The notes: generated by a model not told the origin, from the letters alone. Numbered from the stretch's first letter, positions 9,864 through 48,861 are shown. The stretch: DNA of 64,000 nucleotides from an archaeon (GCA_018670085.1 JABHRS010000008.1:70136-134135), one strand, 5' to 3'. Numbers and translations: made by a program.

Positions 9864-12800
9864 ATGATGGTTGGAAAAAATAACGGTGCTGCTAAGAGTA
9901 ATTGGACTTTAATTCAGCGAAAGCTATTAGCACTATTTGTAATTTTATTATTTGTAAACATGCCAATAGTTGTGGCACTAGATATTAGTTCAGTTACTAG
10001 TAGTGATATAACTGGGTCAGATGCTGTTGTAACTTGGAACACTGATGAAGAGGCAAGTAGTTCAATTTATTATGGAACTGATATAAGTGATCTTAACTTA
10101 GTTGAAAGTAATTCTGATACTGTGTCTGAACATAGTTTAGCATTATCAGGATTGGAATCTGAAACTGAATATTATTATTATGTTGAGAGTGAGACTGCAA
10201 ATGATTCTGCTAGTGATGATAATTCTGGTGATTATTATTCTTTTACAACAGATGTTGCTGAAGAAGCTGAAACTGCAGAAGAAGCTAGCGAAACTGCAGA
10301 AACAACTGGAGAATCAAGCGAAAGTGAAGACACAAGTTCCATTGGACTAATTGTTGAACATGAAGCTTATGTCGGAAGTGACGAGTTAGATGTTGCGGTG
10401 ACAGCTACTGATAACACTGAAATTCGTGTATATGTAAATGGAGGATATTTTTCTAAAGACTCAGTTGATGCTGAAGAGAGCGGGACTGGAACTTTAACAT
10501 TTAGAAGTGTTCCATTAAATGAAGATCAATTAAACCAGATCACAGTTGAAGCTGTGCTTGGTGATTTAGAAGAAACTGTTACAAGTGATGTATATAGCGA
10601 TGCAACTCATCCAACATTATCTGTTAATAAGATAAATGATTATGTTGAAGAGAGCTCAATTACAATCAGTGGATCCGCAAGTGAGTTGGTTTCAGTTTCT
10701 ATAAAAGTCAATGGAGAAGAAGTAATATCTGGATCTGAAGAGCTGTCTGTAGATTTTTCAGAATCAGTTAATTTAGAAGAAGGTTCCAACACTATAATTA
10801 TCTCTGCAACAGATGCTGGTGGATTAACTACAACTGAAACCGTAAGAGTTACAAGTGATACTGAAGACCCGACAGTGGATGCAGTAATTGAAAAAGGAAA
10901 TGAATATTATCAAAATAGGGCTGAAACTGATATCACAGGAACCACTGAAGCTGGTGCTAAAGTATACTTATTTGTTTATCGACCACAAACTCATGATTAT
11001 TCCCCTGATTTTGATGATGCATGGGAAAAAGTTGAAGCTGATGAAAATGGTGAATTTAGATTCTCAGATATTGATTTTGAAAATGAACCAATTAGTTTTG
11101 ATGACTTAGCACCTTCACAAGTTCCAGCTGGGTTAGAGGAAGTTTCTATCAGCGGAGTTGATACATTAAATGATGCTGATGATTATACTTTTTACATTTA
11201 TATTATCTCAGAAGATGCTAGTGGAAAAACCGGTTATTACAAAGATAGTGTGACTGTTCATTCTTGTTATTCACAGAGTTTGGATTTTCAAATTACTGAT
11301 GTTGCTAAGTTCCAATCACCACTTAGATTAGATCCTACTTTGATGGATGATGGACGCGAGGTAATCTCAGCTGTATTCACACTTGATTACAGAGGAACTG
11401 GTTCAAGTGAAGTAGATGTGTCAACTGGAGCAGTTACAGAAAGTCCATTTCAAATTGGATCTGTAACTATCGAAAAAGCATGTACTCAAAGTATGCTTGA
11501 AGATGAAAAATTCTCACTTGGATGTACATTACTTGGAAGTAAACCAACTGAAATGGAACCAAACAGTGATGGGACTGCATATTATGTAACTTGGAATTTA
11601 GGATCTAGTGAAGATTTAAGTGAAAGAGATACTGATTTTTGGGATGATTTGAAAAAGAGAAAAATTGTTTTTCCATTAAAAGTTTCAGTTAATTATCAAG
11701 AACGTGAAGCAACAGGTGGACAGACTGGATCAAAAACTCAAACTAGTTGTACAGACATTTCTTATTTTGTAGATGTTCCAGTTGATAGTAAGGAATACAT
11801 CCCAGATTGGCTTGCAGAGGATGGAATAAAGGCAATTAATGTAACCATTGAAAAAATCGATAAAATTTTACCTTACTTAGAAAAAGCAATATTGATCACA
11901 AGTATTGGATGTGTAACTTCATTTCTTGGAAAAATTGTAATGCGTTTTGCTAGAATTGCAAGCAGTAATGTGGAAGCTATTAGTGGTGCGGTAAAACAAA
12001 AAACTGGAGAAAAAATCTATTGTCCAAGTTCAACTGAACAATGGAATATGTATTTAGATAGCTCAATTGAGTCTTGGAAAGACAGTATTGAAGATCATGA
12101 TCCTTCTGTAGAGAGCAGAATTAAAGATTACGATAACAGTTATATTGAAGATGAAGATAAACATGGTAAAAGTTTGGATGATAATTGTCCAAGTACAGCT
12201 AACATGTGGAAATTAGAATCTGGTCTTGAGCAAGCTTACAAGTGGACTTGTGATCGGGTATTTTGCCGAGCAGTGCCCGCGAAATGGACTGAAACAAAAG
12301 AGACTTATGAAATTGCAAGTGTGATTCAAAAACAACAACAATGTTCAGTTAGTGGGGCTTGTGTACCACTTCGTGAACAAGAGAACTGTCGTCAGTTCAT
12401 TCAAGATAATCAAAAGGGATTAACATTGGCACAAAATGTTGATGCAGATTTAGATGGGTTAGAAATTGATGGTGGAACTTGCTGGTGGAAAGATGATGAT
12501 GTGGAATTAATTGGAAATTCATTTTCAACATCATTATATTATTTTGATGGAAGTGATGAGGCTGGTGTTGTTAATGAAGATAATGGAGTTTACAAATTAA
12601 AAAAGATTGGAAGAACACTTGCAGATCCTGGAACTGTTTCTGGAGATTCTATCCTAGTGTACAAAGAAGGGGATTCTTATTGTAGTGCTCGTGATGCTTC
12701 ATGTTCCAAACTTTGTGGAAGTAGCCAAGCTGGAAATTTTAGGGCATATGAACCAAGAGATGGTGAAGGATATACTGTTAATCTTAAAGAGGGATTGGCA

Positions 12801-15488
12801 ACTCCTGGTGGTTCTTGTTTTATTGAGACTGAAGATGGTTTAAGTAGTAAGAAGGTAGGCGGAGATGCTCCAAAAGGCAAACAATTTGCAGCAGGATATA
12901 CCGATGATTGTTTTGTTGATAGTGTAGGAGATAAATATCAATGTATCTGTGAGAAGGATGATGATAAAGATGAAGGTGCACTAAAAGGAGCACGTCAAGC
13001 AATTGCAACAATCGAAGGCGAAGGAGATGCCGGAGAAATTCGAGAGAAATTTTTGTACCGCCAAGATCGAGTCTTTAAAGAAAGTTCAAGACTTAGAGGA
13101 ACATATTATCCATCTGAACGTTACTATGCTGGACGTGATTTAGCTGGAGCATTTGGGCAAGATTATTTGCTTGATTATTTGAACAGTGATGGAAACAAAA
13201 GACATCATGAAATTAATCCTAGCACTCAACATATTGGAGCATTTCAATCAATGTGTTTAAGTGGGATTCGTGGACGTTTAGTTTTACTTCGAAATGTTTT
13301 AGATGGACTTCGTCAATGTATTACTGAAGCAAAATATACTGGTCTTCAAGATGCTGGAATGTGTAAAACAATTTTTACTCAACATGTATGTGGTTTAGTT
13401 TACAAAGCAGTTTCTTATTTTACTGATAGCTGTACTCCTTATGGATTTTCAGACAACGGAAAAAGTGGAGATATTTTAGGTGAACAAATTAAAGCAACTT
13501 TTGCCAGTGTTGAACCTGCTATGCAAAGTAGTGTAGATGATTTACTTGCGGATTATGACAATGCTCATTTGAACGAATTTTTCTCTGGTGGCGCTCAAGG
13601 ACTTACTCAATCACTTTGTTTAGCTGCCTTTGGATATGATTTTCCACTTGGTGCTGATTTTATTCAAGATGCAGCTTATTCAGTTGCTATGAAAACTATG
13701 GTTTTAATCACACCAGCTAATAGGGAGTTTACAAATTATAATCCAAAAGATTTGACAACTGTTCATAACTATGAAGTTGCAGCTGTGATCTTTGCTGGTT
13801 GTAGAATTAATAATTATAACACTTATTTGAAATGTATCGGAACTGAAGATCAAGGTCGTCCAGGGATTGATACTAGCTGTGATGGGGAAGGATGTGATTG
13901 CTTATCAATTAAAACAGACACTTATGCTAGTCAAAGAATCCGTAATTTGGATGGCGGGACAGGATATGGGGTAGCTGCAGGTGAAATGGTTGATATTAAA
14001 CTTACAAGTCCTCAAAAAATTGATAGTCCTTACAGATACGATCATGTGGTTGTGGAAGTTGATTTGGATCCAAACGAGAACCCAGAGAAATGTTTTGATG
14101 AAGGTTATCGAACAGACACTGGTGGAATTTTTTATATGCCAATTAATGATATTACACCACCTGGGTTAGTTAGTTGTCAAGTTGAATCATTAACTGGGAG
14201 ATATACTTGTCCTGAGATTGGCGAATTATTTTATGGAGACGAAGGTCTTGCTTATTTAGAAGCACCTTACATTGAATGCCGTGATCCTTCAACAGGTGAC
14301 TTTGAAAGTTGTGGTACTCCTAACATGCTCTTGCTAAATAATAATGATAAAGATTTGGTAATCAAACCGTATGTATACACAGATGGTGCTGGTTATTGTA
14401 TGAAAATAAAAGTGACTGGTTCTGGAACAGATTATGGGACTGAAATTGTAAAAATACCTGTTGGACAAACAGGAGGAATGGCACCAAGTATTGATATCGG
14501 AGAAATTTCAGATGAAATGTTTGGTGAATACAGTAATGATCTGAAATTAGTTAGTGGAAGTAATGTTGGATGTACTCAACTCGGAGTTACTAACAGTCCG
14601 TCAAGTGTTAGCAGTTCAAGTATCAATTTTAAGTATTCAATCGGAGCTAGAAGTGATGGTAGTGATGGATACAAAGTGACAATCCCTGAAGATGTAACAT
14701 TTGTAACAACCGGTTATGAACTAAGTAGTAGCGCAAATAGATATCTAATATCTACAACATCTTCGGAAACCTATTTGGATTTAGATGAGATTAATGATAT
14801 CTCTTTTGAATATGAAGGATTCGAATTTCATAATATTTTAGGGAAAGCTAGTGCAGCAGGAGATAAATATTGTAAATATAAAGTACAAGTAGCATCTAGT
14901 TCAATAAATACTCGTAATGAAGCAAGTATAGGTGTAGAAGTCGCATTACTTCAAATGCCAGAAGGTGGATCCTGTTATTCTGCAAAAATTCCAGTAACTG
15001 ATAATGCACTTGGAGCTAGTAGTAAGAAAGTGACAGTTGTAATTCAAAAAGAGTCAGTTGCTGTTGCAAGTACTAGTAACCTTCATAGTAATTTTTTAGC
15101 AGGAGATTATGAGGATGTAATTGATATGGCCTCAACTCTGATCTTAGAAGAACCTGGAACACTTAGTGAAGCAGAAGGAATTTATTATTATGTGATGAGT
15201 TTGGGTGCCTTGGGAGTTAAAGGTAGTGGTATCGATTATTATGAAACTGAAATGGTGAACCTGATGAAAAGGTTCTTTTTCCGAGTTGATACTTCAAGTG
15301 ATTTAGTAACTACTTTTGATGATGATGTTCAAAGTTATGCTGAATTTCAAAATTATAGAAATTATCTTTGTAAAATTGCAGATGAACTTAGTGTTGGAAG
15401 TAGAAATTTTGTAGATGTTAATAATCAAAAAGATGTAACTTATGATTCTTCAACAGGGAAGGGGACTAGTATGTGGGGATGTATTTAG
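9864..15488 (+). CDS. giant (1874 aa) surface protein: signal anchor, FN3-like domain, acidic linker, Ig-like repeats, internal hydrophobic segment, about 1150-aa Cys-rich region
   Basis: LLALFVILLFVNMPIVVA anchor. VVTWNTDEEASSSIYYG...ETEYYYYV (FN3-like). EEAETAEEASETAETT linker. Repeats ending in DTEDPTV. AILITSIGCVTSFLGKIVMRFA. More than 40 Cys by eye downstream. Confidence 0.7.
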   Translation: MMVGKNNGAAKSNWTLIQRKLLALFVILLFVNMPIVVALDISSVTSSDITGSDAVVTWNTDEEASSSIYYGTDISDLNLVESNSDTVSEHSLALSGLESETEYYYYVESETANDSASDDNSGDYYSFTTDVAEEAETAEEASETAETTGESSESEDTSSIGLIVEHEAYVGSDELDVAVTATDNTEIRVYVNGGYFSKDSVDAEESGTGTLTFRSVPLNEDQLNQITVEAVLGDLEETVTSDVYSDATHPTLSVNKINDYVEESSITISGSASELVSVSIKVNGEEVISGSEELSVDFSESVNLEEGSNTIIISATDAGGLTTTETVRVTSDTEDPTVDAVIEKGNEYYQNRAETDITGTTEAGAKVYLFVYRPQTHDYSPDFDDAWEKVEADENGEFRFSDIDFENEPISFDDLAPSQVPAGLEEVSISGVDTLNDADDYTFYIYIISEDASGKTGYYKDSVTVHSCYSQSLDFQITDVAKFQSPLRLDPTLMDDGREVISAVFTLDYRGTGSSEVDVSTGAVTESPFQIGSVTIEKACTQSMLEDEKFSLGCTLLGSKPTEMEPNSDGTAYYVTWNLGSSEDLSERDTDFWDDLKKRKIVFPLKVSVNYQEREATGGQTGSKTQTSCTDISYFVDVPVDSKEYIPDWLAEDGIKAINVTIEKIDKILPYLEKAILITSIGCVTSFLGKIVMRFARIASSNVEAISGAVKQKTGEKIYCPSSTEQWNMYLDSSIESWKDSIEDHDPSVESRIKDYDNSYIEDEDKHGKSLDDNCPSTANMWKLESGLEQAYKWTCDRVFCRAVPAKWTETKETYEIASVIQKQQQCSVSGACVPLREQENCRQFIQDNQKGLTLAQNVDADLDGLEIDGGTCWWKDDDVELIGNSFSTSLYYFDGSDEAGVVNEDNGVYKLKKIGRTLADPGTVSGDSILVYKEGDSYCSARDASCSKLCGSSQAGNFRAYEPRDGEGYTVNLKEGLATPGGSCFIETEDGLSSKKVGGDAPKGKQFAAGYTDDCFVDSVGDKYQCICEKDDDKDEGALKGARQAIATIEGEGDAGEIREKFLYRQDRVFKESSRLRGTYYPSERYYAGRDLAGAFGQDYLLDYLNSDGNKRHHEINPSTQHIGAFQSMCLSGIRGRLVLLRNVLDGLRQCITEAKYTGLQDAGMCKTIFTQHVCGLVYKAVSYFTDSCTPYGFSDNGKSGDILGEQIKATFASVEPAMQSSVDDLLADYDNAHLNEFFSGGAQGLTQSLCLAAFGYDFPLGADFIQDAAYSVAMKTMVLITPANREFTNYNPKDLTTVHNYEVAAVIFAGCRINNYNTYLKCIGTEDQGRPGIDTSCDGEGCDCLSIKTDTYASQRIRNLDGGTGYGVAAGEMVDIKLTSPQKIDSPYRYDHVVVEVDLDPNENPEKCFDEGYRTDTGGIFYMPINDITPPGLVSCQVESLTGRYTCPEIGELFYGDEGLAYLEAPYIECRDPSTGDFESCGTPNMLLLNNNDKDLVIKPYVYTDGAGYCMKIKVTGSGTDYGTEIVKIPVGQTGGMAPSIDIGEISDEMFGEYSNDLKLVSGSNVGCTQLGVTNSPSSVSSSSINFKYSIGARSDGSDGYKVTIPEDVTFVTTGYELSSSANRYLISTTSSETYLDLDEINDISFEYEGFEFHNILGKASAAGDKYCKYKVQVASSSINTRNEASIGVEVALLQMPEGGSCYSAKIPVTDNALGASSKKVTVVIQKESVAVASTSNLHSNFLAGDYEDVIDMASTLILEEPGTLSEAEGIYYYVMSLGALGVKGSGIDYYETEMVNLMKRFFFRVDTSSDLVTTFDDDVQSYAEFQNYRNYLCKIADELSVGSRNFVDVNNQKDVTYDSSTGKGTSMWGCI

Positions 15489-16196: not shown

Positions 16197-17489
16197 ATGA
16201 AAATAAATTCAGTGCATGCCAGGGAAATTTTAGACAGTAGAGGAAATCCAACTGTGGAGGTTGAGATTTCAACTAAACTTGGATCTTTTATAGGGGTAAG
16301 CCCTAGCGGTGCGTCTACTGGAGAGCATGAAGCCGTTGAAAAACGTGATGGAGGATCTCGCTATTTAGGTAAGGGAGTTAAAAAATCTGTTCAACTGATA
16401 AATTCTAAAATTGCTAAATCACTAATAGGTAAATCTTGTCTGAATCAAAAAAAATTGGATGAATTGCTTTGTTTAATTGATGGGACTGATGATAAACGAA
16501 AAATTGGAGCAAATGGTATTGTTGCATGTTCAATGGCTATTGCAAGGGCAGGAGCTGCAAGTTATAAAAAACCACTTTATACTCATTTGAATGATATTTA
16601 TTCTAAACTGTATGGGAAAAAAATTGCTGTGAAAATTCCTCAAGGATATTTTAATGTACTAAACGGGGGGAGGCATGCAGCAAATAAACTAGCTTTTCAA
16701 GAATTTATGTTGGTACCTAGTGCAAATTCATTTGCTAAACAATTACAAATGGTCAGTGAGATTTATCATCATTTGCAAGTTTTGCTGATTAAAAAATTTC
16801 CTGGTCAAGTAATTGCAGTTGGCGATGAAGGAGGATTTGCACCGCCACTTAGTAAACCTGAAGAAGCTCTTAATTTATTAGTTAAAGCAGTTGAGATTGC
16901 AGGATATTCAAAGAAGGTATCTTTTGCAATGGATGTTGCAGCTAGTGAATTTTATTCTGAAAGAAAAGGCCGTGGAAAATCAAGTGGAGAGTATAGAGCA
17001 CACAAGATGTTTAATGCTAGTAGTTTAATGAAATACTATATCTCTCTTTGTGAAAAATATAATATAGTTTCTATTGAAGATCCATTTGATGAAAATGCAT
17101 TTGTAGATTTTGCTAGCTTAAGAAAATTAATATCTCAAAATTCTAACTTGAAAAAAAGGAAGATTCAAATAGTCGGAGATGATCTTACTTGTACTAACAG
17201 TTTGCGGGTAAAGGTTGCAGTTCTTGAAGAGAGTTGTGATTGTTTACTCTTGAAAGTAAATCAAATTGGGACCGTAACTGAGGCGATGCAATCAGCTGTG
17301 CTTGCTCAAAAAAATGGATGGAAAGTAATGGTGTCTCACAGAAGTGGAGAAACTTCCGATACTTTTATTGCAGACCTTGCTGTTGGAATTGGCTGTGGTC
17401 AAATTAAATCAGGATCAACTGCTCGAGGCGAGAGAGTTGCTAAATACAATCAATTACTCAGAATTGAAGAGAGGATGAAAAGGAGATGA
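16197..17489 (+). CDS. eno: enolase
   Basis: MKINSVHAREILDSRGNPTVEVEI, SHRSGETSDTFIADLAVG and KYNQLLRIEE are canonical enolase motifs. 430 aa. Confidence 0.95.
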   Translation: MKINSVHAREILDSRGNPTVEVEISTKLGSFIGVSPSGASTGEHEAVEKRDGGSRYLGKGVKKSVQLINSKIAKSLIGKSCLNQKKLDELLCLIDGTDDKRKIGANGIVACSMAIARAGAASYKKPLYTHLNDIYSKLYGKKIAVKIPQGYFNVLNGGRHAANKLAFQEFMLVPSANSFAKQLQMVSEIYHHLQVLLIKKFPGQVIAVGDEGGFAPPLSKPEEALNLLVKAVEIAGYSKKVSFAMDVAASEFYSERKGRGKSSGEYRAHKMFNASSLMKYYISLCEKYNIVSIEDPFDENAFVDFASLRKLISQNSNLKKRKIQIVGDDLTCTNSLRVKVAVLEESCDCLLLKVNQIGTVTEAMQSAVLAQKNGWKVMVSHRSGETSDTFIADLAVGIGCGQIKSGSTARGERVAKYNQLLRIEERMKRR

Positions 17490-18862
17490 ATTTTCGATTT
17501 AAATTATTGTTTCAATTATTCTTAATGATTCTAGTAGTTAGTAGTTTATCATTTGTGGTTTTTGCTCCAGCTCCCGGTAGTGGTTCTGCATCTTTAGGTG
17601 AAGATGATTTGGCTTGTCGTGATCAAAATGACTGTGATGAAATTGATGAAGCGTGGGTATTGTTTGTTAGTATTACTGGAGTGAATGGTGGAAGTCAAGA
17701 TGTTTGGCAAGCAAAAGAGAAGAGTAGTGGTGATTATGGTGGAGATTGGGTAGCTTATTCTGAGAAGTATCCAAGTGATGATGATTTAACAATTGAATGT
17801 GATGAGAAATTAACTTGTGGTGATTTAACAGAGATTAAAAGTGGAGATAATATTGATGCAAACTCTGGGTCTGAATCTAATTGTGCAAAGAGTGAGGTAG
17901 TATCAGATTTTGAAAAGGCAGCCGCAGCGTTTGAATCAAAATCAAGTAAAAAAATAGTTTTAACTAGTGGGTTTAGAACTATTCAAAGTCAAGCTGAACT
18001 TTATTGGACTAACTGTTATGATAAAACTGGCACTGGAGACACCGGAAGACTTGGTAGTTGTGATCCTCCAACAGCTGCTTTAGGTATTAGTTCAACTGTG
18101 TTAGATGATTACACAAGTCATGATGAAGTTATTAATGAGTTTTGTGAAAATGGTAATTATAATGTTGGTTATCATACTAAAGGAACTGCGCTTGACATTT
18201 GGCCTGAAGGAACTGTTGATGATTGGGTTGCAAACGTGAAGTTAATGAATCAAATGCAAGACAAAATGGAAGATAATGGATTTTGTAGATTAGCTTCAGA
18301 AGGATGGCATTATGATTATAAGAGTTCATGCGGCAGTTCTGGAAGTGCTGCTAAAGGTGATTATACTTATAGTAGAAGTGGAGTTACTGATGATTATGAT
18401 CCAGTTAGTGAATGTAAAAAAAATGGTTGTGCTTTGGAAGACTGTTGGTGGGATTATCTTAAACATGAAATTGATGAGTCTAAATCAGTTTGTAATTTAA
18501 CTCCATGTTCAGAATATCAAGAAGATGGATATTATTGCAGTGTTAATGTAGGATCAGATTCAGATGCAAAATGTGTAGATCCTTCTGATAATGAGGAATA
18601 TGTCTGTGATAATGATTTAGAGTATTGTTCTGTTTATGATGATGAAGAGGTTTATTCTTGTGAGGTGTTGAATAATAAATGTTATATCATAACTTCTAGT
18701 TCATCTTATAACTTAGGAGATGGATTTGATTGTATAAATGATCAAAAAAGTTGTTCATCATATTCTCTGGATGATTATGATTGTGGGTCTATCATCTTGA
18801 GTAATACTGATTGTACTGATAAATTAACTGGAAAGTCTTATTATTGTTATAATGATTATTGA
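17486..18862 (+). CDS. secreted Cys-rich protein with an M15 (LAS-family, VanY/D-Ala-D-Ala carboxypeptidase-like) zinc peptidase domain
   Basis: Signal anchor LLFQLFLMILVVSSLSFVVFA. TSGFRTIQSQAELYW, GYHTKGTALDIW (HxxGxAxD) and SEGWHYDY (ExWH). The C-terminal 150 aa is very Cys/Asp-rich. The start overlaps the eno stop (ATGA). Confidence 0.7.
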   Translation: MNFRFKLLFQLFLMILVVSSLSFVVFAPAPGSGSASLGEDDLACRDQNDCDEIDEAWVLFVSITGVNGGSQDVWQAKEKSSGDYGGDWVAYSEKYPSDDDLTIECDEKLTCGDLTEIKSGDNIDANSGSESNCAKSEVVSDFEKAAAAFESKSSKKIVLTSGFRTIQSQAELYWTNCYDKTGTGDTGRLGSCDPPTAALGISSTVLDDYTSHDEVINEFCENGNYNVGYHTKGTALDIWPEGTVDDWVANVKLMNQMQDKMEDNGFCRLASEGWHYDYKSSCGSSGSAAKGDYTYSRSGVTDDYDPVSECKKNGCALEDCWWDYLKHEIDESKSVCNLTPCSEYQEDGYYCSVNVGSDSDAKCVDPSDNEEYVCDNDLEYCSVYDDEEVYSCEVLNNKCYIITSSSSYNLGDGFDCINDQKSCSSYSLDDYDCGSIILSNTDCTDKLTGKSYYCYNDY

Positions 18863-18959: not shown

Positions 18960-20882
18960 ATGACTAATAATTCTACTGAGCAAGATTCAAAGCTACTTGA
19001 AGAACAGATTCTTCAAAATAGTAACTACTCTGAACAAGATCAATTATTATTCAAAAAAGCAATTGAACTTGCTAAAAAAACATTGGCTGATAAGAAAAGG
19101 TTAGCAGGTGATAGTTTCTTTGACCATAATTTAAGGGTAGCTAATTATTTACAATCAATTAAATCAGCTCCAGAAGTTGTCGCAGCAGGACTGGTACATG
19201 CTATCATTAAATATATCCCAGAAAGAGAACTTCATGATTTTTTCAAAGAGAGAGGGAAAGATATTTTGGCTCTTGTTAAGGGAGTTGAAGAGATTACAGT
19301 TATTAAAAATAAAAACTTAAAATTAACAGCTGAAGCACTTCGAAAAATTCTTTTAACTACAATAAAAGATGCTAGAATAATCCTAATTAAATTAGCTGAC
19401 AAATTAGATAATTTGGCAGATGTGACGGTTTTAAGTGTAGATGAGCAACAAAGAATTTGCCAAGAAATACTTGATATGTATGCTCCACTTGCATATAGGT
19501 TAGGAGTTGAGAAATTTAAAATTCAATTAGAAGATTTAGCACTTAAGGTGTTAAACCCTGAGGAATTCAATAATATTTCAAAATTTTTAGAACATTCTAA
19601 ACAAGAAAGAGATGAGCTGATCTCTTTGTTAATTCAAGAGATTAAAACTAAGTTAAAATCCGTAGATTTGAAGAGTGTTAAGGGAAGAAGTAAACATGTT
19701 TACAGTATTCATAAAAAAATTGCTGAGAGGGGAGTTGCACTTGAAGATCATTATGATCACTTAGCGATTAGAATAATTGTTGAAAATGAAAGAGAATGTT
19801 ACGAAGTGTTGGGATTTTTGCATGAATTTCATGAAATTCTTGAAAGTAGATTAAAGGATTACATTGCTAATCCTAAACCAAATGGATATCAATCTATTCA
19901 TACAGGAATTTTATTCAATAATAAAAGAGTAGAAGTTCAAATTCGAACACAACAAATGGATGAGTTTGCAGAAGAAGGACTTGCTGCTCATTGGAGATAT
20001 AAAGGTGGAAAAGGCGAAGCTGATTTTGAACGACGAATGGGCTGGCTTAAAGGAGTACTTGATTTAAATCAAGATTCAACTGCAAGAGAGTTCTTAGAAC
20101 ATGTGAATGTGGATTTATTCACAGATGAGATATACTGTTACACCCCAAAAGGAGAAGTTAGGTATTATCCAAAGGGCGCTGGAGTACTTGATTTCGCTTA
20201 CTCTATTCATGAAAAAGTAGGGAGTTGTGCTATCGGAGCTAGAGTTAATGGACAATTTTTACCGCTTAGAACAAAATTAAAATCAGGTGATGTAATTGAA
20301 ATTATCACTGCAAAAAATCAAGTGCCTGGCCGTGGTTGGTTAAAATGGGTAAAGTCACCTCGAGCTAAACAAAAAATTAGGAAGGCGCTGAAGGAGCATA
20401 AAGGACTTCCAGCAATGCGATACTCCAAGTTTAAACCAGTAATTCAAACAGAATATGATACTTTGGTTCATTCTTTGAAATATGAAAATGCGGCTTGTGT
20501 ACTTGCAAAATGTTGTCAGCCAATTCCTCCTCAAAAAATAGTTGGAATTGTAACTAAAAAAAGATTAATTTCTATTCATGAAGTAGAATGTCGTCAAGCC
20601 ATCAAAGTTCAAGATCGCTGGGAAACTGTAGAATGGAAAGAACAATTTAACAAAGCCTTGCAGTTTCATGTAATTGCAGTAGAAAGAAGTGGGTTGTTAG
20701 CTGATTTATTGCATACAATTGCAAATGCAAAATTTGAAGTTAGAGAAGCTAAAGCAAAAGTGGAAGGCACTGGTCGAAATCAATGTAGTTTTGTGATTAT
20801 CCCTCAAAGTTTAAACAGAATAGTTGAATTAATTGATAGAGTGCGTAAAGTAAAAGGAGTGAAAAAAATATTTTTTGAATAG
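18960..20882 (+). CDS. long RelA/SpoT homologue (pseudo-HD, synthetase, TGS, Cys-rich helical/ZFD and ACT/RRM regions)
   Basis: Synthetase motifs GRSKHVYSIHKKI, DHLAIRIIV, RLKDYIANPKPNGYQSIHT and EVQIRTQQMDEFAEEGLAAHWRYK. TGS: YCYTPKGEVRYYPKGAGVLDFAYSIH. The HD site is degenerate (GLVHAIIKY instead of LLHDxxED; LADKLDNL instead of ADRLHNM). Confidence 0.85.
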   Translation: MTNNSTEQDSKLLEEQILQNSNYSEQDQLLFKKAIELAKKTLADKKRLAGDSFFDHNLRVANYLQSIKSAPEVVAAGLVHAIIKYIPERELHDFFKERGKDILALVKGVEEITVIKNKNLKLTAEALRKILLTTIKDARIILIKLADKLDNLADVTVLSVDEQQRICQEILDMYAPLAYRLGVEKFKIQLEDLALKVLNPEEFNNISKFLEHSKQERDELISLLIQEIKTKLKSVDLKSVKGRSKHVYSIHKKIAERGVALEDHYDHLAIRIIVENERECYEVLGFLHEFHEILESRLKDYIANPKPNGYQSIHTGILFNNKRVEVQIRTQQMDEFAEEGLAAHWRYKGGKGEADFERRMGWLKGVLDLNQDSTAREFLEHVNVDLFTDEIYCYTPKGEVRYYPKGAGVLDFAYSIHEKVGSCAIGARVNGQFLPLRTKLKSGDVIEIITAKNQVPGRGWLKWVKSPRAKQKIRKALKEHKGLPAMRYSKFKPVIQTEYDTLVHSLKYENAACVLAKCCQPIPPQKIVGIVTKKRLISIHEVECRQAIKVQDRWETVEWKEQFNKALQFHVIAVERSGLLADLLHTIANAKFEVREAKAKVEGTGRNQCSFVIIPQSLNRIVELIDRVRKVKGVKKIFFE

Positions 20883-20918
20883 ATTTTTAATATATTGTTG
20901 AATTGTTAAGGTATAAAC

Positions 20919-21353
20919 ATGAAAGAGAGAAGAAATGTAAGAGCAATATTGTTTGATGACTCTAAAGGTGAAATAAATTTTTTGCTTTTATATGCGCGAA
21001 AAGAATATTGGCAGTTTCCTCAAGGTGGAGTCGATAAAGGTGAAACTGAAGTTGATGCTGTACAAAGAGAAGTTATGGAAGAAACCGGTCTTAGAATTTG
21101 GAAAAGAGATGTTCTCAAAAAAAGCAAAGTAGATACAATTTATTTTGCTGAACGAGATAGGGAACCAATAAAGGTGTTACTCTCTGCATATGCTGTAAAG
21201 GTTAACAGTGATAAGGATGTGGTTATAGGTAGAGGCGGAGATGCACATCAAGATTATCAATGGGTAAAATTGGATAGAGTTTTGAAGTTACTCACTAAAT
21301 ACCCTGAACAATTAAAGATATTTAAGAAAGTAGCTGAATTAATGGATTTTTGA
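20919..21353 (+). CDS. Nudix hydrolase
   Basis: Nudix box GGVDKGETEVDAVQREVMEETGL (GX5EX7REUXEEXGU). 144 aa. Confidence 0.85.
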   Translation: MKERRNVRAILFDDSKGEINFLLLYARKEYWQFPQGGVDKGETEVDAVQREVMEETGLRIWKRDVLKKSKVDTIYFAERDREPIKVLLSAYAVKVNSDKDVVIGRGGDAHQDYQWVKLDRVLKLLTKYPEQLKIFKKVAELMDF

Positions 21354-22472: not shown

Positions 22473-23486
22473 TTAAAGAATTTTAACCAAATCAACTAAG
22501 CGACAACTATAACCCCATTCATTATCATACCAAGCAACTATCTTGACAGTATTGTTACCAAGTACCTTGGTTAGCTTACTATCAATAATTGCAGAGTGTG
22601 GGTTACCAATAATGTCTTTGGACACTAAATCATGTGTTGAGTATTCTAATATCCCTTTGAGTTTTCCTTTACTTGCTTTTTCTAAAACTTTATTCACTGT
22701 CTCAACCGTTACTTTCTTTTTTGTTTGAATTACAAAATCAGTGACGCTGCCATCTGGAATTGGAACACGAAAAGCTGTGCCTCTGATCTTTCCTTTTAAT
22801 ATTGGGAGAACCTCGGTAGTTGCAATATCAGCTCCAGTTGAAGATGGGATTATATTAACAGCAGCTGCTCTTGCTCTTCGTAAATCTTTATGTGGACCAT
22901 CAACTAATCTTTGGGTTGAGGTATAACCATGAATTGTGGTAAAAAAACAATTAGTAATTCCAAAACTATCTTGAATTACTTTTAATGTTGGTGCTACACT
23001 GTTTGTTGTACAAGAAGCATTAGAGATTATATGAACTGATTTTTTGGTTTTTTTGTAATCTTTTTCGTTTACTCCATAAACTATTGTTTGATGTTTAGTT
23101 TTAGTGTTGTCTTTTGGTTTAGCTGGAGCTGAAAGTAGAACTTTTTTGGCACCAGCAAATAGATGCAGAGTCGCAAAATCTGGATTTGTAAAAAATCCTG
23201 TAGATTCAAGAACAATATCAACTTTTAATTTTTTCCAAGGCAATTTAGCGGGATCTTTTTCTGCAAAAATAGGGATTGATTGATTTGCAATTTTGATACC
23301 TGTTTTAGTTGCGGTGACATTTTTTGGAAATTTTCCATGTACAGAATCATATTGAAATAATGTTGCTAAAGTTTCTGGATGAGTAAGGTCGTTTATAGCT
23401 ACAACCTTAATCTTTTTGTCTGTCAATGCTGCTTTTAAGAACATTCTTCCAATTCTACCAAATCCATTAATTGCAACTCTTACCAT
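22473..23486 (-). CDS. gap: glyceraldehyde-3-phosphate dehydrogenase, type I (bacterial/eukaryotic type)
   Basis: VAINGFGRIGR, SNASCTTNS (catalytic Cys) and WYDNEWGYS. 337 aa. Confidence 0.9.
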   Translation of the reverse strand: MVRVAINGFGRIGRMFLKAALTDKKIKVVAINDLTHPETLATLFQYDSVHGKFPKNVTATKTGIKIANQSIPIFAEKDPAKLPWKKLKVDIVLESTGFFTNPDFATLHLFAGAKKVLLSAPAKPKDNTKTKHQTIVYGVNEKDYKKTKKSVHIISNASCTTNSVAPTLKVIQDSFGITNCFFTTIHGYTSTQRLVDGPHKDLRRARAAAVNIIPSSTGADIATTEVLPILKGKIRGTAFRVPIPDGSVTDFVIQTKKKVTVETVNKVLEKASKGKLKGILEYSTHDLVSKDIIGNPHSAIIDSKLTKVLGNNTVKIVAWYDNEWGYSCRLVDLVKIL

Positions 23487-30289: not shown

Positions 30290-30667
30290 TTATACAAGAA
30301 CCGCATTCATACATCCTTCTTGTCCAGGACGTGATGTGATCTTTGCTTTACCAAGTTTTGTTTCAACAACTGCACCTTTAGTTAAAATGTTTCGACGTAC
30401 AAGATGAGGATTAGCTGCGTTTTCAACTACATTTACAATAGTTGTTTTTTGAGCTTTTCCATCTTTACCCATTACATTTACTTGGTCACCAGCTAAAAGA
30501 ACACGCTTAACTGTTCCACCACATGCTCGAACAGATTTGGTTCGGGTCTCAGTTGAAATTTTTGTGTTAGCTGCAAATCTAGAAAGTTCTTTTTTTCTTT
30601 TAGTTCGATCATCCCAGTATCTTCCACCAGTTGATTTTCGCTTTGCTCTTCGTTGACTTGTTGCCAT
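30290..30667 (-). CDS. rps8e: 30S ribosomal protein S8e
   Basis: RKSTGGRY...KRKKEL...GGTVKRVLL...NPHLVRRNILTKGAVVET...ITSRPGQEGCMNAVL matches the S8e pattern, an archaeal/eukaryotic-only family. Confidence 0.9.
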   Translation of the reverse strand: MATSQRRAKRKSTGGRYWDDRTKRKKELSRFAANTKISTETRTKSVRACGGTVKRVLLAGDQVNVMGKDGKAQKTTIVNVVENAANPHLVRRNILTKGAVVETKLGKAKITSRPGQEGCMNAVLV

Positions 30668-31764: not shown

Positions 31765-33630
31765 TTATTTTTTACTTAGAACTTTCTTCATTAATGATTT
31801 TTTACCAGTCCAATCAAGTGCATGTTCTAAAACTTCACTAATTGTACTAACAGGAATAATCTCAACTTTTTCTAATTCTTCTTTACTCAAAACAATGTCT
31901 TGTAAGTTGCTACTTGGAACTAATACCTTTGCAATTCCACTATGAATTGCAGCTTCTATTTTATACGAAACACCACCAATTGGAAGTACTTCTCCACGTA
32001 CAGAAAGGGAACCTGTCATTGCAATATTTTGATGAATTGGAATTTGTTTTAACGCTGAGATGATGGAAGTTGCAACAGCAATACTCGCACTATCACCTTC
32101 AACACCTTCATAAGTTTGTAAAAATTGAACGAAAATATCTTTGTTCTCTTTAATGTCTTCACCGAAATAAGACATAATAATTGCTGAAACATTTGTGATA
32201 GCTTCCTTTGCAATTTCACCTAGTTTTCCAGTTGCAACAATTTGTGCTTTCTTTCCACCAATAGTTACTTCGGATTCGATTGGTAGCAGAACACCAGAAT
32301 AACCTTCACCATTACCCATCACAGCTAAACCATTTACACGCCCAACTCTTACACCTTCGGTAATAAAAACTTCATACTCACGCTTACGTTCAATGTGACG
32401 ATCAGCCATTTGTTGTTCTAGAGGTCTTGCAAATAATCTGGCGTTTTTAACATGAGATGCCCTTACAAACTCTGCATTTTCTTCTTTAGCTAAATCTCCA
32501 GCAGCTCGAACAAGCCCACCAAGCCCACGTAGTTTGAGAGTTAGACAATGTTTTCTGTTAGCTCTACGTTTTGCTTCTTGAATAATTTCTTTAATAGCAT
32601 CGATTGCAAAATGAGGGATTTTTCCATTTTCTCTTTTAACTTCTTGAGCAATGAATTTGGCAATTTTTAATCTGTTATCTTTATTGTCTTCCATGGTTTC
32701 ATGCATATAAATTTCGTAACCGTAACCACGGATTCTACTCCTTAATGCTGGGTGCATGTTTTTGACAGTGTCTAAGTTACCTGCTGCGACGAGAATAAAA
32801 TCGCAAGGAACAGCTTCAGTTCGAACCATTGCTCCACTACTACGTTCTGATTGACCAGTAATTGGAAACTTTTTTTCTTGAATTGCACTTAATAGTTCTT
32901 GTTGAGTTCGAAGCGCTAAGGTTGCAATTTCATCAATAAATAAAACGCCCTTGTTTGCTTTGTGGATCATTCCACCAACTACACGTTGATTTGCAGGAGT
33001 TCCAAGTCCGCCGGACTGGAGTGGATCGTGAAGAACATCACCTAAAAGGGCACCTGCGTGCGCTCCAGTTGCATCATAAAAAGCAGTAGCTTTTTTGTTT
33101 TTTTTATCGCTTTTGTCGACGATAAGTTTTGGATAAATAACTTTGTCTCCACCAAACGCTTTTGGTCCAATGTTCATCATAACTGAAAAAGCTACTAAAA
33201 ACATCATCCCACCTAAGAAGAATGCTGCGAACATAATGTCTGAATTGTAATAATGTCTTGCCCACCAAGGAGCAATCATAACTATAATTGCTAAAATGAA
33301 AGTTAAAAAACGCATATTTTTGAAAGCTTGTTTGCTATCAACTTGGGCTCTACGAACTGTATCTCTTCCAGTTCCGGCTGCAATTTCTTTGATCATAGGT
33401 TCGTTTTCGTCGTGAGGATTTGGAAGTGAGAGAATGTCTTTTAGTTCGCTTTTTGGCAGTAGTTCTGAAAGAGCTAAACCTAACATTGATTTACCAGTTC
33501 CAGGTTCGCCAATTAAGAGGACATGTCTTCTTTGAAGCGCTGCTTTTTTGATGACAGCGATTGCTTCTTCTTGGCCTACTACCTGTTCGATCAATTTACT
33601 AGAAACTTTGATGTCTTTAGTGGATTTCAT
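31765..33630 (-). CDS. lonB: archaeal membrane-bound Lon protease (LonB)
   Basis: Walker [11 protein letters not shown] insertion in the AAA+ module ([16 protein letters not shown]...[16 protein letters not shown]). C-terminal Lon protease domain ([16 protein letters not shown]; [16 protein letters not shown]). Confidence 0.9.
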
Positions 33631-35468: not shown

Positions 35469-35568
35469 GGGCTTGTGGTCTAGTGGCTATGACAGTGCCC
35501 TTACATTTCAGTTTTTCGGAATTGGATAAGTGAGGCATTGATCCCCGGTTCGAGTCCGGGCAGGCCCA
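35469..35568 (+). tRNA. tRNA-Val (anticodon UAC) with a 27-nt intron (35506-35532) at the canonical 37/38 position
   Basis: Acceptor GGGCUUG/CAGGCCC, discriminator A. D arm GUCU-AGUGGCUA-UGAC. Anticodon stem GUGCC/GGCAU, loop CU-UAC-A|intron|A. T arm CCCGG-UUCGAGU-CCGGG. The junctions fold into hBHBh': central helix CUUA/UAAG, 3-nt bulges CA|U and UG|A, inner helix UUCA/UGGA. CCA is not encoded. Confidence 0.9.
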
Positions 35569-39908: not shown

Positions 39909-40128
39909 TCATGGTGGTCAGGCCGGGCTAATACATTTCAGTTCACCTATGATTTTTATTTTTAAATTTTTTAATATAGAATAAAAATTGCTCCTGAAAA
40001 TTCACTGCTTTTATTTTATGTCTCGGCAAGAGACGCCCACGACAATAACATTGTTTTATGCAGACATTCCTAACTTGAGTTAACTGTAGCTTGTAACGGT
40101 GTTCAATACATCTCTACTTCGCCATCCA
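39909..40128 (+). repeat. copy Y of the diverged dispersed repeat (partner at 29947-30100)
   Basis: Same ordered blocks as copy X. It carries an AT-rich insertion of about 57 nt (39929-39988) and a shorter middle segment. Its right end overlaps the last codons and stop of the helicase fragment. Confidence 0.5.
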
Positions 40129-40771
40129 TAAAAATCCCCTTATGCAACTTTACAGGACGCCAAGTATCAATAACTAACTTAGCTTCAAGCCAATCTGCAA
40201 GCGCTTTTGGATTACCAATTGTTGCTGATAAACCTACTAATTGCGGCTTAATTCGACTTTTTAGAATTGTTAAGATCACTTCTAATGTTGGACCACGACT
40301 AGCATCGTTAAGCAAATGAATTTCATCAATTACAACCAACTTAATTTTATTTAACCAAGAAACATTGTGTCGCATTAAAGAATCTAATTTTTCCGTCGTT
40401 AAAACAAGTAAATCGTAATTTGCTAAATTAGGGCTTGATGAATCCATATCACCAGTTGACATTACAACTTTATATTCAGTGTCTTCTAAAAGTGATTTGA
40501 ACTCTTTATATTTTTCATTCGCTAGTGCACGTAGAGGAACTAAATAAATTGCCTTGCCTTTACCTAATGTGTTTGCTATTGCCATTGAGGCAACTAAAGT
40601 TTTTCCAGAGGCCGTTGGTGCACAAATTAACTGTGAACTAGCTTTTGGATTGTTTGAATCTTGATCTAAAAGGCCGGCTTTGACTGCTTTTTCTTGGATC
40701 GGTGTTAAATTTGGAAATTTATTGTAGTGATCTTTGAAAAATACAGGAAGTGATAATTTTTTGATCTCCAT
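40103..40771 (-). CDS. Ski2/Hel308-like superfamily-2 helicase, N-terminal RecA1 domain only (truncated or split gene)
   Basis: Motif I APTASGKT, Ia YLVPLRALANEK, II DEIH, III SATIGN, then WRPVKL. The ORF stops after 222 aa, whereas family members are about 700 aa. No RecA2 or ratchet domain follows. It has its own TATA-like box (ATTTATAT, 40797-40804). Confidence 0.7.
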   Translation of the reverse strand: MEIKKLSLPVFFKDHYNKFPNLTPIQEKAVKAGLLDQDSNNPKASSQLICAPTASGKTLVASMAIANTLGKGKAIYLVPLRALANEKYKEFKSLLEDTEYKVVMSTGDMDSSSPNLANYDLLVLTTEKLDSLMRHNVSWLNKIKLVVIDEIHLLNDASRGPTLEVILTILKSRIKPQLVGLSATIGNPKALADWLEAKLVIDTWRPVKLHKGIFMDGEVEMY

Positions 40772-43833: not shown

Positions 43834-45057
43834 ATGAAATTAAAGGAATTTGAAGGCAAACAATTATTTCAAAAAGTAGGAATTATTGTAAGCAAAGGAA
43901 CCGTGATTAGATCTGTATCAGAGATCCAAGAGTTTAGTGGATCGCGGCTTTTGAAAGTACAAACTATTGCTGGTGGTCGTGGTAAGGCTGGAGGAATAAT
44001 TTTAGTAAATAATTCTAAAGAAGCAAAAGAGAAGGCAGCTGAATTCTTAGGACAGGAATTTTTAGGAGAAAAAATTACTGAGATTGTTTTAGATGAAAAA
44101 ATTGATATTAAGAAGGAGTTGTATTTAGGATTACTATTTAACACTAAAAAAAGGGTGCCAGTGTTTATTTTTAGCACTGAAGGTGGAGTTGAGATTGAAG
44201 AATTACAATTAAACTCCCCTGAAAAAATTAAATTACAAGAAATTGATATCTTAACTGGATTAACTGATGAAGATTGTGATATACTTTTAGATGGATCTTC
44301 CTTAGGCTCTGATGTTACTTTGCAACTTAAAGTTGTGATGAACCAGCTTTGGAAATGTTTTACTGAGTTTGATTGTAAGATGCTTGAAGTAAATCCACTT
44401 GTAATTACTGGTGATGATAAATTAGTTGCTGTTGACTCAGTAATTGTACTTGATGATGATGCGAATTATCGGCGTGAAATTAAGTTTCCAAAACGTTTAG
44501 ATGGCCGTGAAAAGACTGCAAGGGAAATCGCAGCGAACAAAATTGATGAAAATGATCCAAAAGGAGTTGCTGGAAAAACTTATTTGGATTTAGATGGTGA
44601 TATTGGAGTTTTGACAAGTGGAGGGGGAGCTTCAATGACCTTAATGGACGCATTATTAGAATTTGGTGGAAAGGCTGCAAATTTCACTGAATATAGTGGA
44701 GATCCTACGCGTGAAAAAGTTCAAAAATTAACTAGGGTTGTGCTTGGAAAAGAAAACCTCTCTGGATTACTTGTTGCTGGTGCAATTGCAAATTTCACTA
44801 ACATTAAAGAAACATTAACTGGAGTTGCAGACATATTAGTTGAGAAAAAACCAGATTACCCTATTGTAATTAGACGGGCTGGTCCGTATGATCAAGAAGC
44901 AAAAATAATGCTTGCGAATGTGAAAAAAGAACATGGACTTGACATTCATTACTTTGATGAGAAAATTCCAATGACTAAGGCAGCTGAAATGATGGTTGAG
45001 TTATCCAATAAATATAAACAAGAAAAAATCGCAAAAAGCGTTGGAGCTGAACAATGA
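43834..45057 (+). CDS. ATP-grasp subunit of a succinyl-CoA-synthetase-family ligase (SucC / citryl-CoA synthetase large subunit / AclB-like)
   Basis: MKLKEFEGKQLF, TIAGGRGKAGGI and DGDIGVLTSGGGASMTLMDALLEFGGKAANFTEYSG are typical beta-subunit blocks. Confidence 0.8.
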   Translation: MKLKEFEGKQLFQKVGIIVSKGTVIRSVSEIQEFSGSRLLKVQTIAGGRGKAGGIILVNNSKEAKEKAAEFLGQEFLGEKITEIVLDEKIDIKKELYLGLLFNTKKRVPVFIFSTEGGVEIEELQLNSPEKIKLQEIDILTGLTDEDCDILLDGSSLGSDVTLQLKVVMNQLWKCFTEFDCKMLEVNPLVITGDDKLVAVDSVIVLDDDANYRREIKFPKRLDGREKTAREIAANKIDENDPKGVAGKTYLDLDGDIGVLTSGGGASMTLMDALLEFGGKAANFTEYSGDPTREKVQKLTRVVLGKENLSGLLVAGAIANFTNIKETLTGVADILVEKKPDYPIVIRRAGPYDQEAKIMLANVKKEHGLDIHYFDEKIPMTKAAEMMVELSNKYKQEKIAKSVGAEQ

Positions 45058-45980
45058 GTATTCTAATAGATGAAAATACCAAATTTATTATCCAAGGAAT
45101 AACTGGAAAACAAGGTACGCGTTCTACAATTGATATGCTTGCGTCAGGATCAAAATTAGTCGCTGGAGTTACACCAGGAAAAGGTGGACAACAAGTTGAA
45201 GGAGTTCCTGTGTTTAACTCAATAAAAGAAGCACAAGAAATTGTAGGCGAGATAAACTGTTCAGTTGTAATGGTTCCACCAAGATTTGCAAAAGGAGCAG
45301 TAGTTGAAGCAATTGAAGCTGGTATTCTGTTAATAAACATTATCACAGAAAATATCCCTATTCATGATATGGCAGAATGTTTGAAACTTGCAAAAGAAAA
45401 AAATGTTAGAATAATTGGTGCAACCTCAGCTGGAATTTATTCTGTTGGAAAATCAAAATGTGGGCCAGTTGCTTCAGGAAAATCAAAAATTGCATTATCA
45501 AAAGGATCAGTTGGAATAATCTCTAGAAGTGGAGGGATGAGTTGTGAGACAGCACTTGTTTTAACACAAGCAGAACTTGGGCAAAGTACAATTGTGAGTA
45601 TTGGAAGCGATGTTTTGATGGGAAGTACTTTCAAAGAAATTGTTGAATTGTTCGAAAATGATTCAGAGACAAAAGGAATAGTTCTTTTTGGAGAAATCGG
45701 TGGGACAAGTGAAGAAGATTTGGCTGAGTGGTTATTAAAAAGAAGAGAACTTGGTAATCTATTCACAAAACCAATAGTAGCTTTTATCTCAGGAAAATTT
45801 GCTGAAAATTTAGGAGTACAAAATGTGTCTTTGGGTCACGCAGGAGCTATTATTGAAGGAACTAAAGGAACTCGTGAAGGAAAAGTGAAAGCACTTAAAG
45901 AGGCTGGAGTTATTATTGCAGAGTATCACCATAAAGTTGCTGAGTTGATGAAAAAAGAGTTAGAATTAAAAAATAATTAA
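45054..45980 (+). CDS. CoA-binding/phosphohistidine subunit of the same ligase (SucD / citryl-CoA synthetase small subunit-like)
   Basis: IIQGITGKQGT (CoA-binding Rossmann) and SLGHAGAIIEG (phosphohistidine loop). ATGA overlap with the upstream gene. Confidence 0.8.
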   Translation: MSILIDENTKFIIQGITGKQGTRSTIDMLASGSKLVAGVTPGKGGQQVEGVPVFNSIKEAQEIVGEINCSVVMVPPRFAKGAVVEAIEAGILLINIITENIPIHDMAECLKLAKEKNVRIIGATSAGIYSVGKSKCGPVASGKSKIALSKGSVGIISRSGGMSCETALVLTQAELGQSTIVSIGSDVLMGSTFKEIVELFENDSETKGIVLFGEIGGTSEEDLAEWLLKRRELGNLFTKPIVAFISGKFAENLGVQNVSLGHAGAIIEGTKGTREGKVKALKEAGVIIAEYHHKVAELMKKELELKNN

Positions 45981-45993
45981 GAGGAAAAACAAA

Positions 45994-47764: not shown

Positions 47765-47780
47765 AGGGATTTTCTAAATT

Positions 47781-48476: not shown

Positions 48477-48499
48477 TCATATATCAAAAGGGAAAAAAT

Positions 48500-48856: not shown

Positions 48857-48861
48857 TTGAG

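Follow-up and report, generated by a model that had tools for sequence, protein, structure and literature searches.

A compact RelA/SpoT homologue with a degenerate hydrolase site, directly followed by a Nudix gene, in a marine DPANN archaeon

The window analysed here is a stretch of 64,000 nucleotides (GCA_018670085.1, JABHRS010000008.1:70136-134135), and its source organism is a tiny marine DPANN archaeon. It encodes a long RelA/SpoT homologue (RSH) followed on the same strand by a Nudix hydrolase, and the pair lies between an enolase gene and a convergent gene for glyceraldehyde-3-phosphate dehydrogenase (GAPDH) (Table 1). The RSH keeps the residues of a (p)ppGpp synthetase and has lost those of the hydrolase. 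It belongs to a family of DPANN proteins, here called family A, that groups with a second DPANN family, family E, in which the hydrolase site is intact. On balance, we consider it rather probable that the protein is a compact RelA-like synthetase and that family A derives from family E; in the clade of the window, a Nudix enzyme may replace the lost hydrolase.

The order of domains is that of a long RSH, with an HD domain followed by a RelA_SpoT synthetase domain, and the C-terminal region contains TGS, zinc-finger (RIS) and ACT domains. The protein scores above the general spoT_relA cut-off and below those of the equivalogs for proteobacterial RelA (NF008124, 358.9 bits, cut-off 728) and SpoT (NF008303, 394.7 bits, cut-off 947). 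The preliminary description of this DNA credited it with all long-RSH regions, which holds for the HD, synthetase, TGS, RIS and ACT domains but not for the alpha-helical domain, reduced to one helix by the absence of about 75 residues. The segment between TGS and the first zinc-finger cysteine is 63 residues long in family A, against a bacterial median of 139 (range 128-161). Here the local alignments to M. smegmatis Rel and E. coli RelA leave about 110 residues of the target unaligned, against about 31-38 of the query, and in the AlphaFold model (mean pLDDT 81.8) residues 467-481 form the only helix of this stretch and are followed by a disordered loop. H417 of the TGS domain, which we take to be the histidine with which bacterial Rel and RelA contact or sense the CCA end of tRNA, is invariant in 46 of 46 family-A sequences, as are C513, C518, C519, H540 and C544 of the zinc finger. 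Mean identity in the ACT domain is 0.61 within family A vs 0.37 in the bacterial set.

The hydrolase site is degenerate. In a HMMER alignment to B. subtilis Rel (6yxa, 353 bits), the bacterial GGFLHDVVEDT faces AAGLVHAIIKYI and KLADRLHNM faces KLADKLDNL, giving H80-A81 in place of HD and K84-Y85 in place of ED. In the numbering of Rel_Seq, D78 is an alanine, E81 a lysine and D82 a tyrosine, and H53, H77, D144 and N148 are kept; the hydrolase-residue set of a bifunctional Rel is incomplete in this protein. The loss of the HD catalytic residues, which had been proposed for this gene, is thus borne out by a proper alignment. The same positions have decayed throughout family A (n=120). The D78 equivalent is G in 87 sequences, R in nine, S in seven, A in five and D in three; the E81 equivalent is K in 57 and E in four; the D82 equivalent is Y in 40, H in 21, F in 11 and D in eight; and the D144 equivalent is N in 54, T in 25 and D in 20. 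Among 60 bacterial Rel controls put through the same alignment, 59 keep HD, ED and D144, which indicates that the alignment is sound. One manganese ligand (D78) and both catalytic acids (E81 and D82) are replaced in this protein and across the family. The HD domain is also the least conserved domain of the catalytic region in family A, with a mean identity of 0.55 vs 0.69 for the synthetase domain; the corresponding values in bacteria are 0.63 and 0.64. This weaker conservation fits a pseudo-enzyme retained for structural or allosteric reasons.

The synthetase, by contrast with the hydrolase, is intact, and the motifs quoted in the preliminary description are all present in the translation. 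The G-loop GRSKHVYSIHKK, D266, YQSIH and EVQIRT can be recognised, so that the catalytic set (G-loop, the D264 equivalent, the E323 equivalent in EVQIRT, and YxSxH) is present. G242, R243, K245, S249, K253, D266, R271 and D300, together with Y310, S312, H314, E325, Q327, R329 and T330, are conserved in 118-120 of 120 family-A sequences. The charge motif at residues 297-300 is RLKD, of the RxKD type found in bifunctional Rel, as had been described; ExDD, which occurs as EFDD in E. coli RelA, is absent. R297 is R in 105 of the 120 sequences and K in 11. With the hydrolase residues lost and the synthetase residues kept, the earlier view of a synthetase-only enzyme is well supported from sequence: the RSH very probably makes (p)ppGpp and is unable to hydrolyse it.

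Table 1. Features of the RSH locus, with comparison loci on other contigs
Feature	Coordinates	Strand	Evidence or remark
Enolase	16197..17489	+	Upstream anchor of the locus, conserved
VanY-like protein, secreted, Cys-rich	17486..18862	+	Variable slot between enolase and RSH
Long RSH gene, 640 aa, DPANN family A	18960..20882	+	TIGR00691 spoT_relA 532.1 bits vs cut-off 499.2
Pseudo-hydrolase HD domain, aa 34-183	19059..19508	+	Pfam HD_4 1.6e-30
Codons H80-A81-I-I-K84-Y85 replacing HDxxED	19197..19214	+	Alignment to 6yxa
Synthetase domain, aa 242-350	19683..20009	+	Pfam RelA_SpoT 7e-36
TGS domain, aa 390-450, H417	20127..20309	+	Pfam TGS 391-450, 5e-19
Alpha-helical domain remnant	20337..20465	+	One helix aa 467-481, then disordered loop; ~75 residues shorter than bacterial
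Zinc-finger/RIS domain, aa 503-560	20466..20639	+	Precomputed PF28438 RelA_RIS match; invariant residues; model
ACT/RRM domain, aa 567-639	20658..20876	+	Pfam ACT_4 568-637, 27.4 bits vs cut-off 27; AlphaFold model
RSH-Nudix spacer, 36 nt	20883..20918	+	AAGGT 7 nt before ATG
Nudix hydrolase, 144 aa, Ap4A-hydrolase/RppH-like	20919..21353	+	PF00293 1e-17
Nudix box GGVDKGETEVDAVQREVMEETGL, aa 36-58	21024..21092	+	Canonical GX5EX7REUXEEXGU
Tandem double Lrp/AsnC regulator, 326 aa	21402..22382	-	Convergent on Nudix; travels with Nudix in the marine clade
Type I GAPDH	22473..23486	-	Convergent downstream anchor, conserved across family A
tRNA	35469-35568		28-nt insert directly after anticodon-loop position 37; Rfam match; missed by ARAGORN in bacterial mode
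Enolase-RSH slot genes	Window 17486-18862; L014:1393-3876; L012:1142-2989; L006:3180-4937; L009:2105-3907; L004:2763-4403
Family E example	L022:3989-5899		Proteins P0137-P0256

Family A is large and confined to a recognisable group of hosts. More than 100 homologues of the window RSH at 50-75% identity, all of about 630 residues, are among the matches listed, with the source labels Nanoarchaeota, Woesearchaeota, Nanoarchaeia and 'archaeon'; one of them, from archaeon GW2011_AR9, is annotated as a GTP pyrophosphokinase. A search of genome contigs with the window RSH returned only one locus (L001), from a distant bacterium of the Thiotrichaceae, at 34% identity. In a metagenome scan with the family alignment, the matches listed were mostly bacterial Rel, used as outgroups, and included at least eight new family-A loci. 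Gene order was compared in 16 distinct family-A loci, including contigs of 1.56 Mb and 485 kb. Fifteen of these loci reach far enough on the downstream side, and 14 of them have a convergent GAPDH gene there; an upstream enolase gene is present in at least 12 of the 16. The kept position of the RSH between these two genes points to vertical inheritance within a DPANN lineage.

The second family, E (L022-like), has at least 92 members of about 636 residues. It is compact in the same way, with a linker of 62.5 residues vs 63 in A and 139-141 in bacteria, and its synthetase residues are all intact. Its hydrolase site is also preserved (HD in 92 of 92 sequences, ED in 80 and D144 in 91), and the hydrolase is predicted from these residues to be active. 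Family E is much closer to bacterial Rel than family A is: over the N-terminal 73%, the Rel proteins of Thermosediminibacter, Koleobacter, Fervidicola and Caldanaerovirga share 56-57% identity with it, and family A is 31-43% identical to bacterial Rel. The charge motif is mostly ExDD in the hydrolase-intact family E and RxKD in the hydrolase-dead family A, the reverse of the rule for bacterial RelA and Rel. At L022, the sole E locus examined, neither enolase nor GAPDH occurs in the flanks. Two further loci, L025 and L026, represent a third archaeal lineage, compact and hydrolase-intact; L026 has 54% GC and is flanked by LonB, archaeal Kae1 and TYW1, each above its NCBIfam cut-off. Short-linker forms also occur on two bacterial contigs, L023, where prfA scores above cut-off, and L024, whose neighbours are SecF/DprA-like as judged from N-terminal sequence only.

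A neighbour-joining tree (81 sequences, 630 columns, 200 bootstraps) recovers family A as monophyletic in 200/200 replicates, A together with E in 198/200, E alone in 23/200 and all short-linker forms together in 189/200. Family A branches with or within family E. An earlier tree with only five short-form outgroups left the sister of A unresolved (A+D 13/100), and denser sampling of E resolved it. The mean distance to Firmicutes Rel is 1.27 for A, a long branch, vs 0.90 for E. Neighbour-joining on a long branch is not decisive, but the shared deletion of about 75 residues provides independent support for A+E. Since the sister or parent family consists of DPANN proteins with intact HD and ED, the hydrolase would have been lost within the archaea, and no single bacterial donor of this gene is then to be expected. 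Indeed, phylogenetic placement, suggested earlier as a means of finding the bacterial donor, groups family A with DPANN family E and not with one donor. It seems that a compact bifunctional Rel of bacterial ancestry entered DPANN and that one DPANN sub-lineage then lost the hydrolase and evolved faster, to become family A. Tree, shared deletion and synteny together suggest this descent, and the best reading is that the origin of family A parallels, independently, that of RelA in Proteobacteria.

The gene downstream of the RSH had been described as a Nudix gene with a perfect Nudix box at a distance of 36 nt, and open reading frame (ORF), spacing and box are all as reported. The box is the sole one among the window ORFs (0.0 expected in shuffled ORF sets), and G36, G37, E42, R50, E51, E54 and E55 are invariant in 14 Nudix sequences. 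The spacer contains T-runs and TATA-like strings, which are uninterpretable at 31% GC. By sequence, the nearest solved relatives are the Ap4A hydrolases of C. elegans and human, and RppH; the predicted fold (pLDDT 86) matches, in order, the Ap4A hydrolases of Aquifex and C. elegans, MutT1, human NUDT2 and RppH. The protein shares an N-terminal RxNV and WQFPQGG with an RppH-annotated protein, and falls below all RppH equivalog cut-offs (NCBIfam PRK00714; best 47.6 bits vs 118). The ApnA/RppH-like group, to which it is most similar, includes AtNUDX26.

There are about a dozen close homologues of the Nudix protein (62-74% identity), and the next matches are at about 35%. In the window, L002-L005, L012 and L013, the loci in which the context of an orthologue is visible, the gene always directly follows a family-A RSH in the same orientation, and three more orthologues (P0122, P0127 and P0129) lie on contigs equal in size to RSH-bearing ones. 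The gaps are 15-36 nt (15-26 in the orthologous loci), with GGT or AGGT 7-10 nt before the ATG, and RSH identity within this Nudix-linked marine clade is at least 71%. From this arrangement, RSH and Nudix are probably co-transcribed in the marine clade. Three of the 16 family-A loci, all of the window's clade, carry the Nudix gene, two carry a PF01931 (NTPase_I-T/DUF84) gene and 11 have neither. The PF01931 genes belong to non-marine loci (L009:5904-6440 and L014:5875-6432; E 1e-44 to 1e-46) and lie 11-13 nt downstream of a hydrolase-dead RSH, on the same strand. The presence of an unrelated NTPase in the position of the Nudix gene hints at repeated recruitment of nucleotide phosphohydrolases to this spot, and is the most suggestive comparative evidence for a role of the Nudix protein in alarmone turnover.

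These observations can be combined into a mechanism. The RSH would make (p)ppGpp from ATP and GDP or GTP, and synthesis would be triggered by uncharged tRNA through the TGS, zinc-finger and ACT domains, a response made less certain by the missing alpha-helical domain. The enzyme would be unable to degrade its own product. In the marine clade, a Nudix gene was inserted downstream of the RSH on the same strand; it would be co-transcribed with the RSH, and its product would remove (p)ppGpp and so replace the lost hydrolase. This last step is plausible by analogy, and we hold it tentatively. There are firm precedents, though they do not allow prediction: Ndx8, MutT and NudG turn ppGpp into pGp, NahA produces pGpp from (p)ppGpp, and AtNUDX26 is both an Ap5A hydrolase and a ppGpp pyrophosphohydrolase (PMC5845004, PMC7584652, PMC5389931).

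Several points weigh against the proposal. Apart from the Nudix box, the Nudix enzymes known to degrade (p)ppGpp have little in common (PMC7584652), so that the substrate cannot be predicted from the sequence. Among the 13 family-A loci chosen without regard to Nudix, none has a Nudix gene: in six GAPDH abuts the RSH, in five the slot holds unrelated or unknown genes, and two are the PF01931 loci. Most family-A loci are thus equally hydrolase-dead yet have no adjoining nucleotide hydrolase, and five loci of 16 with such an enzyme, three of them from one clade, are a thin basis. Since the slot between RSH and GAPDH holds varied, unrelated genes, the adjacency of RSH and Nudix could be incidental. 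Three marine metatranscriptomes, from a study in which the DNA of the locus is present, gave no coverage of it, with only 20-40-nt matches to conserved enolase and GAPDH motifs of other organisms. As to the trigger, the alpha-helical domain lies along the A-site tRNA in RelA-ribosome structures, and its loss may change or abolish ribosome binding of the RelA style. The earlier proposal of a two-gene module therefore stands in part: the genes are linked wherever the Nudix gene occurs, in one marine clade, and the Nudix gene is absent from the 13 other family-A loci.

It is quite possible that the Nudix protein has nothing to do with the RSH, being a housekeeping enzyme of the RppH/ApnA type that landed with the Lrp gene in a variable slot, the alarmone being removed by dilution, by other phosphatases or by an enzyme encoded elsewhere. 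Its closest matches in sequence and structure, the RxNV and WQFPQGG shared with an RppH-annotated protein, the count of none in 13 and the unrelated genes that fill the slot in other lineages would all fit. However, linkage is strict wherever the Nudix gene occurs, even at 62% Nudix identity, only very short gaps separate the two same-strand genes, the homologue search contained no free-standing orthologue, and in another clade this position is filled by a nucleotide phosphohydrolase of an unrelated kind. A division of labour like that between RelA and SpoT, in which a family-E paralogue in the same genome degrades the alarmone, would make the Nudix enzyme redundant and so also counts against its proposed role. 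Sister or nested DPANN families with complementary hydrolase states do recall the pattern left by duplication in Proteobacteria. Such a split is nevertheless unlikely, because family E keeps a fully intact synthetase and, suggestively, among the matches listed none of the large A contigs (1.56 Mb, 922, 780, 663, 538, 486 and 479 kb) is shared with E, whose large contigs measure 1.30 Mb, 842 and 599 kb; whole DPANN genomes are of similar length. The short linker (63 vs 139 residues), the single helix in the model and the unusually conserved ACT domain could also mean that the RSH makes another nucleotide, for example (p)ppApp, or acts off the ribosome with a different trigger. We regard this as decidedly unlikely: the motifs, including RxKD and YQSIH, are those of long RSHs that use GDP and GTP, the TGS histidine and the zinc-finger residues are invariant, and short-linker forms are found on the two bacterial contigs as well.

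Two further alternatives concern the provenance of the gene. A recent transfer to this genome from an identifiable bacterial donor, as a self-contained module of synthetase and hydrolase, is suggested by the bacterial type of the protein, by the adjacency of RSH and Nudix and by the fact that long RSHs are otherwise bacterial or plastid (PMC3153485). It is very improbable. The closest relatives among the matches listed are other DPANN archaea, the family is monophyletic on a long stem, its synteny is kept among members that share only 50-75% identity, bacterial Rel proteins match it at only 31-43% identity, and the composition is native. Acquisition by this particular genome, as proposed in the preliminary description, is contradicted by the monophyly of family A, its more than 100 DPANN members and its conserved enolase-RSH-GAPDH locus; what survives of the horizontal origin is that this long RSH of an archaeon is ultimately of bacterial type, not that it came by a recent one-off transfer. 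Nor is it credible, to any appreciable degree, that the contig is bacterial or chimeric. The window does contain bacterial-type genes, namely the RSH, the VanY-like protein and the GAPDH, which matches the bacterial type I form (TIGR01534, 412 bits vs cut-off 367; archaeal type II form, 18 bits). It also encodes ribosomal protein S8e (30290-30667), an archaeal-type LonB with LID domain (31765-33630), an S-layer protein and the tRNA with an insert, whose anticodon reads as UAC (Val). S8e, LonB and this intron-bearing tRNA all lie within 10-17 kb of the RSH, and GC is even along the window (0.30-0.39). Moreover, the exact RSH protein recurs on at least 22 contigs of independent assemblies (JGI, ENA, NCBI, Logan) with its neighbours unchanged, and the DNA of the locus was found in 20 marine or seawater metagenome runs. 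The archaeal assignment is thereby upheld and a chimera excluded.

Comparison with characterised systems makes the RSH a RelA-like member of the long-RSH family that lacks one regulatory sub-domain. It resembles E. coli RelA in its pseudo-hydrolase HD domain, predicted active synthetase and TGS, zinc-finger/RIS and ACT/RRM domains, and would be of the [hS] type. It is not an orthologue, scoring below the NF008124 cut-off, and differs in having lost the hydrolase independently, in archaea, in its RLKD where RelA has EFDD, in the absence of some 75 alpha-helical residues and in its archaeal host. Among solved structures, the best matches are bifunctional Rel proteins (B. subtilis 6yxa, M. smegmatis 8fr8, Rel_Seq 1vj7; 353 and 341 bits), with which it shares RxKD and the overall domain order, and from which it differs in the replacement of HD and ED and in the truncated alpha-helical domain. 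Family E has the same compact architecture, linker, host group and joint clade, but keeps HD, ED and D144, has mostly ExDD and is closer to bacterial Rel. The window Nudix protein resembles the known (p)ppGpp hydrolases (T. thermophilus Ndx8, E. coli MutT and NudG, B. subtilis NahA and Arabidopsis NUDX26) in its fold and its intact box; these enzymes are polyphyletic, and none is reported beside a long RSH in the literature cited. The bicistronic toxSAS systems, in which a small alarmone hydrolase acts as the antitoxin (Jimmy et al., bioRxiv 10.1101/575399), similarly pair a synthetase with a candidate degrading enzyme. In the window, however, a full regulatory long RSH in a housekeeping locus takes the place of the toxSAS enzyme, and a Nudix protein that of the HD-type hydrolase. 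A reading as a defence system was rejected: PADLOC gave only generic domain-level matches (PDC-S33 and PDC-S07), and the conserved housekeeping locus points the same way.

Other genes of the neighbourhood deserve mention. The tandem Lrp protein may be an amino-acid-sensing regulator adjoining a starvation factor; in L010, a gene of this kind is found on the far side of GAPDH. Each lineage has its own secreted enzyme in the slot that separates enolase from the RSH, always of cell-wall-hydrolase type: VanY-like in the window, and Peptidase_M15_4, Peptidase_M23, SLT transglycosylase or GDSL lipase elsewhere. Peptidoglycan-directed enzymes in an archaeon hint at interaction with bacteria. Upstream of enolase, a 1874-aa protein with weak Pur_ac_phosph_N and Glucodextran_B matches is followed by a 195-aa ORF (9864-15488), and this pair is kept in the distant family-A loci L006 and L011. 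Three consecutive genes at 43834-46740 look like an ATP-citrate lyase or citryl-CoA synthetase/lyase divided into parts: one combines ATP-grasp_2 and Citrate_bind, another CoA_binding and Ligase_CoA, and the remaining one corresponds to the C-terminal half of citrate synthase. Such a set is unexpected in a small DPANN genome. A phosphonate-type cluster at 54606-58339, composed of a PEP mutase-cytidylyltransferase fusion, a TPP-dependent decarboxylase and an Fe-alcohol dehydrogenase, is flanked (46772-54100 and 58352-61138) by several glycosyltransferase and sulfatase/phosphodiesterase-family genes and probably serves to decorate the cell surface with phosphonate. Finally, a 222-aa DEAD-box helicase ORF at 40103-40771 (-) has a DEAD/ResIII domain without the helicase C-terminal domain and may be split or truncated.

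The presence of RelA/SpoT in DPANN was published in 2021: the genes occur in 41.7% of Woesearchaeota and 69% of Diapherotrites and were predicted to come from bacteria (PMC8407392). For this group, the view that archaea rarely or never have long RSHs is outdated. RSH classification surveys list no long RSH in archaea (PMC3153485), and reviews of archaeal second messengers treat (p)ppGpp as undescribed (PMC8646023, PMC10249747) and as probably without an important role (PMC10249747). The literature searched contained no account of a family-wide pseudo-hydrolase state of DPANN RSH, of a compact DPANN RSH without the alpha-helical domain, of paired DPANN families with live and dead hydrolases and loss inside the archaea, or of clade-specific Nudix or PF01931 neighbours of RSH. 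What is known is thus the presence of the gene in DPANN, and what is new is its anatomy and its origin.

DPANN archaea possess two RSH families. By prediction, one is bifunctional and the other synthetase-only, and the latter would have arisen inside the archaea in parallel with proteobacterial RelA and SpoT. Both are without the alpha-helical domain that bacterial factors use on the ribosome, which raises the question of whether archaeal ribosomes activate a bacterial-type stringent factor. A second question is what removes the alarmone if the HD site is dead, and whether Nudix or PF01931 enzymes do so. It is possible, if somewhat unlikely, that DPANN archaea run a real (p)ppGpp stringent response, with a hydrolase-dead, fast-evolving RSH devoid of the alpha-helical domain acting on archaeal ribosomes and with recruited Nudix or PF01931 enzymes for turnover. 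If the proteins are inactive or the Nudix enzyme is unrelated, the locus still stands as an annotated instance of a laterally acquired gene with a decayed domain. If the proposal is true, it would be the first alarmone system in archaea and would offer a natural experiment on compensation for a lost hydrolase.

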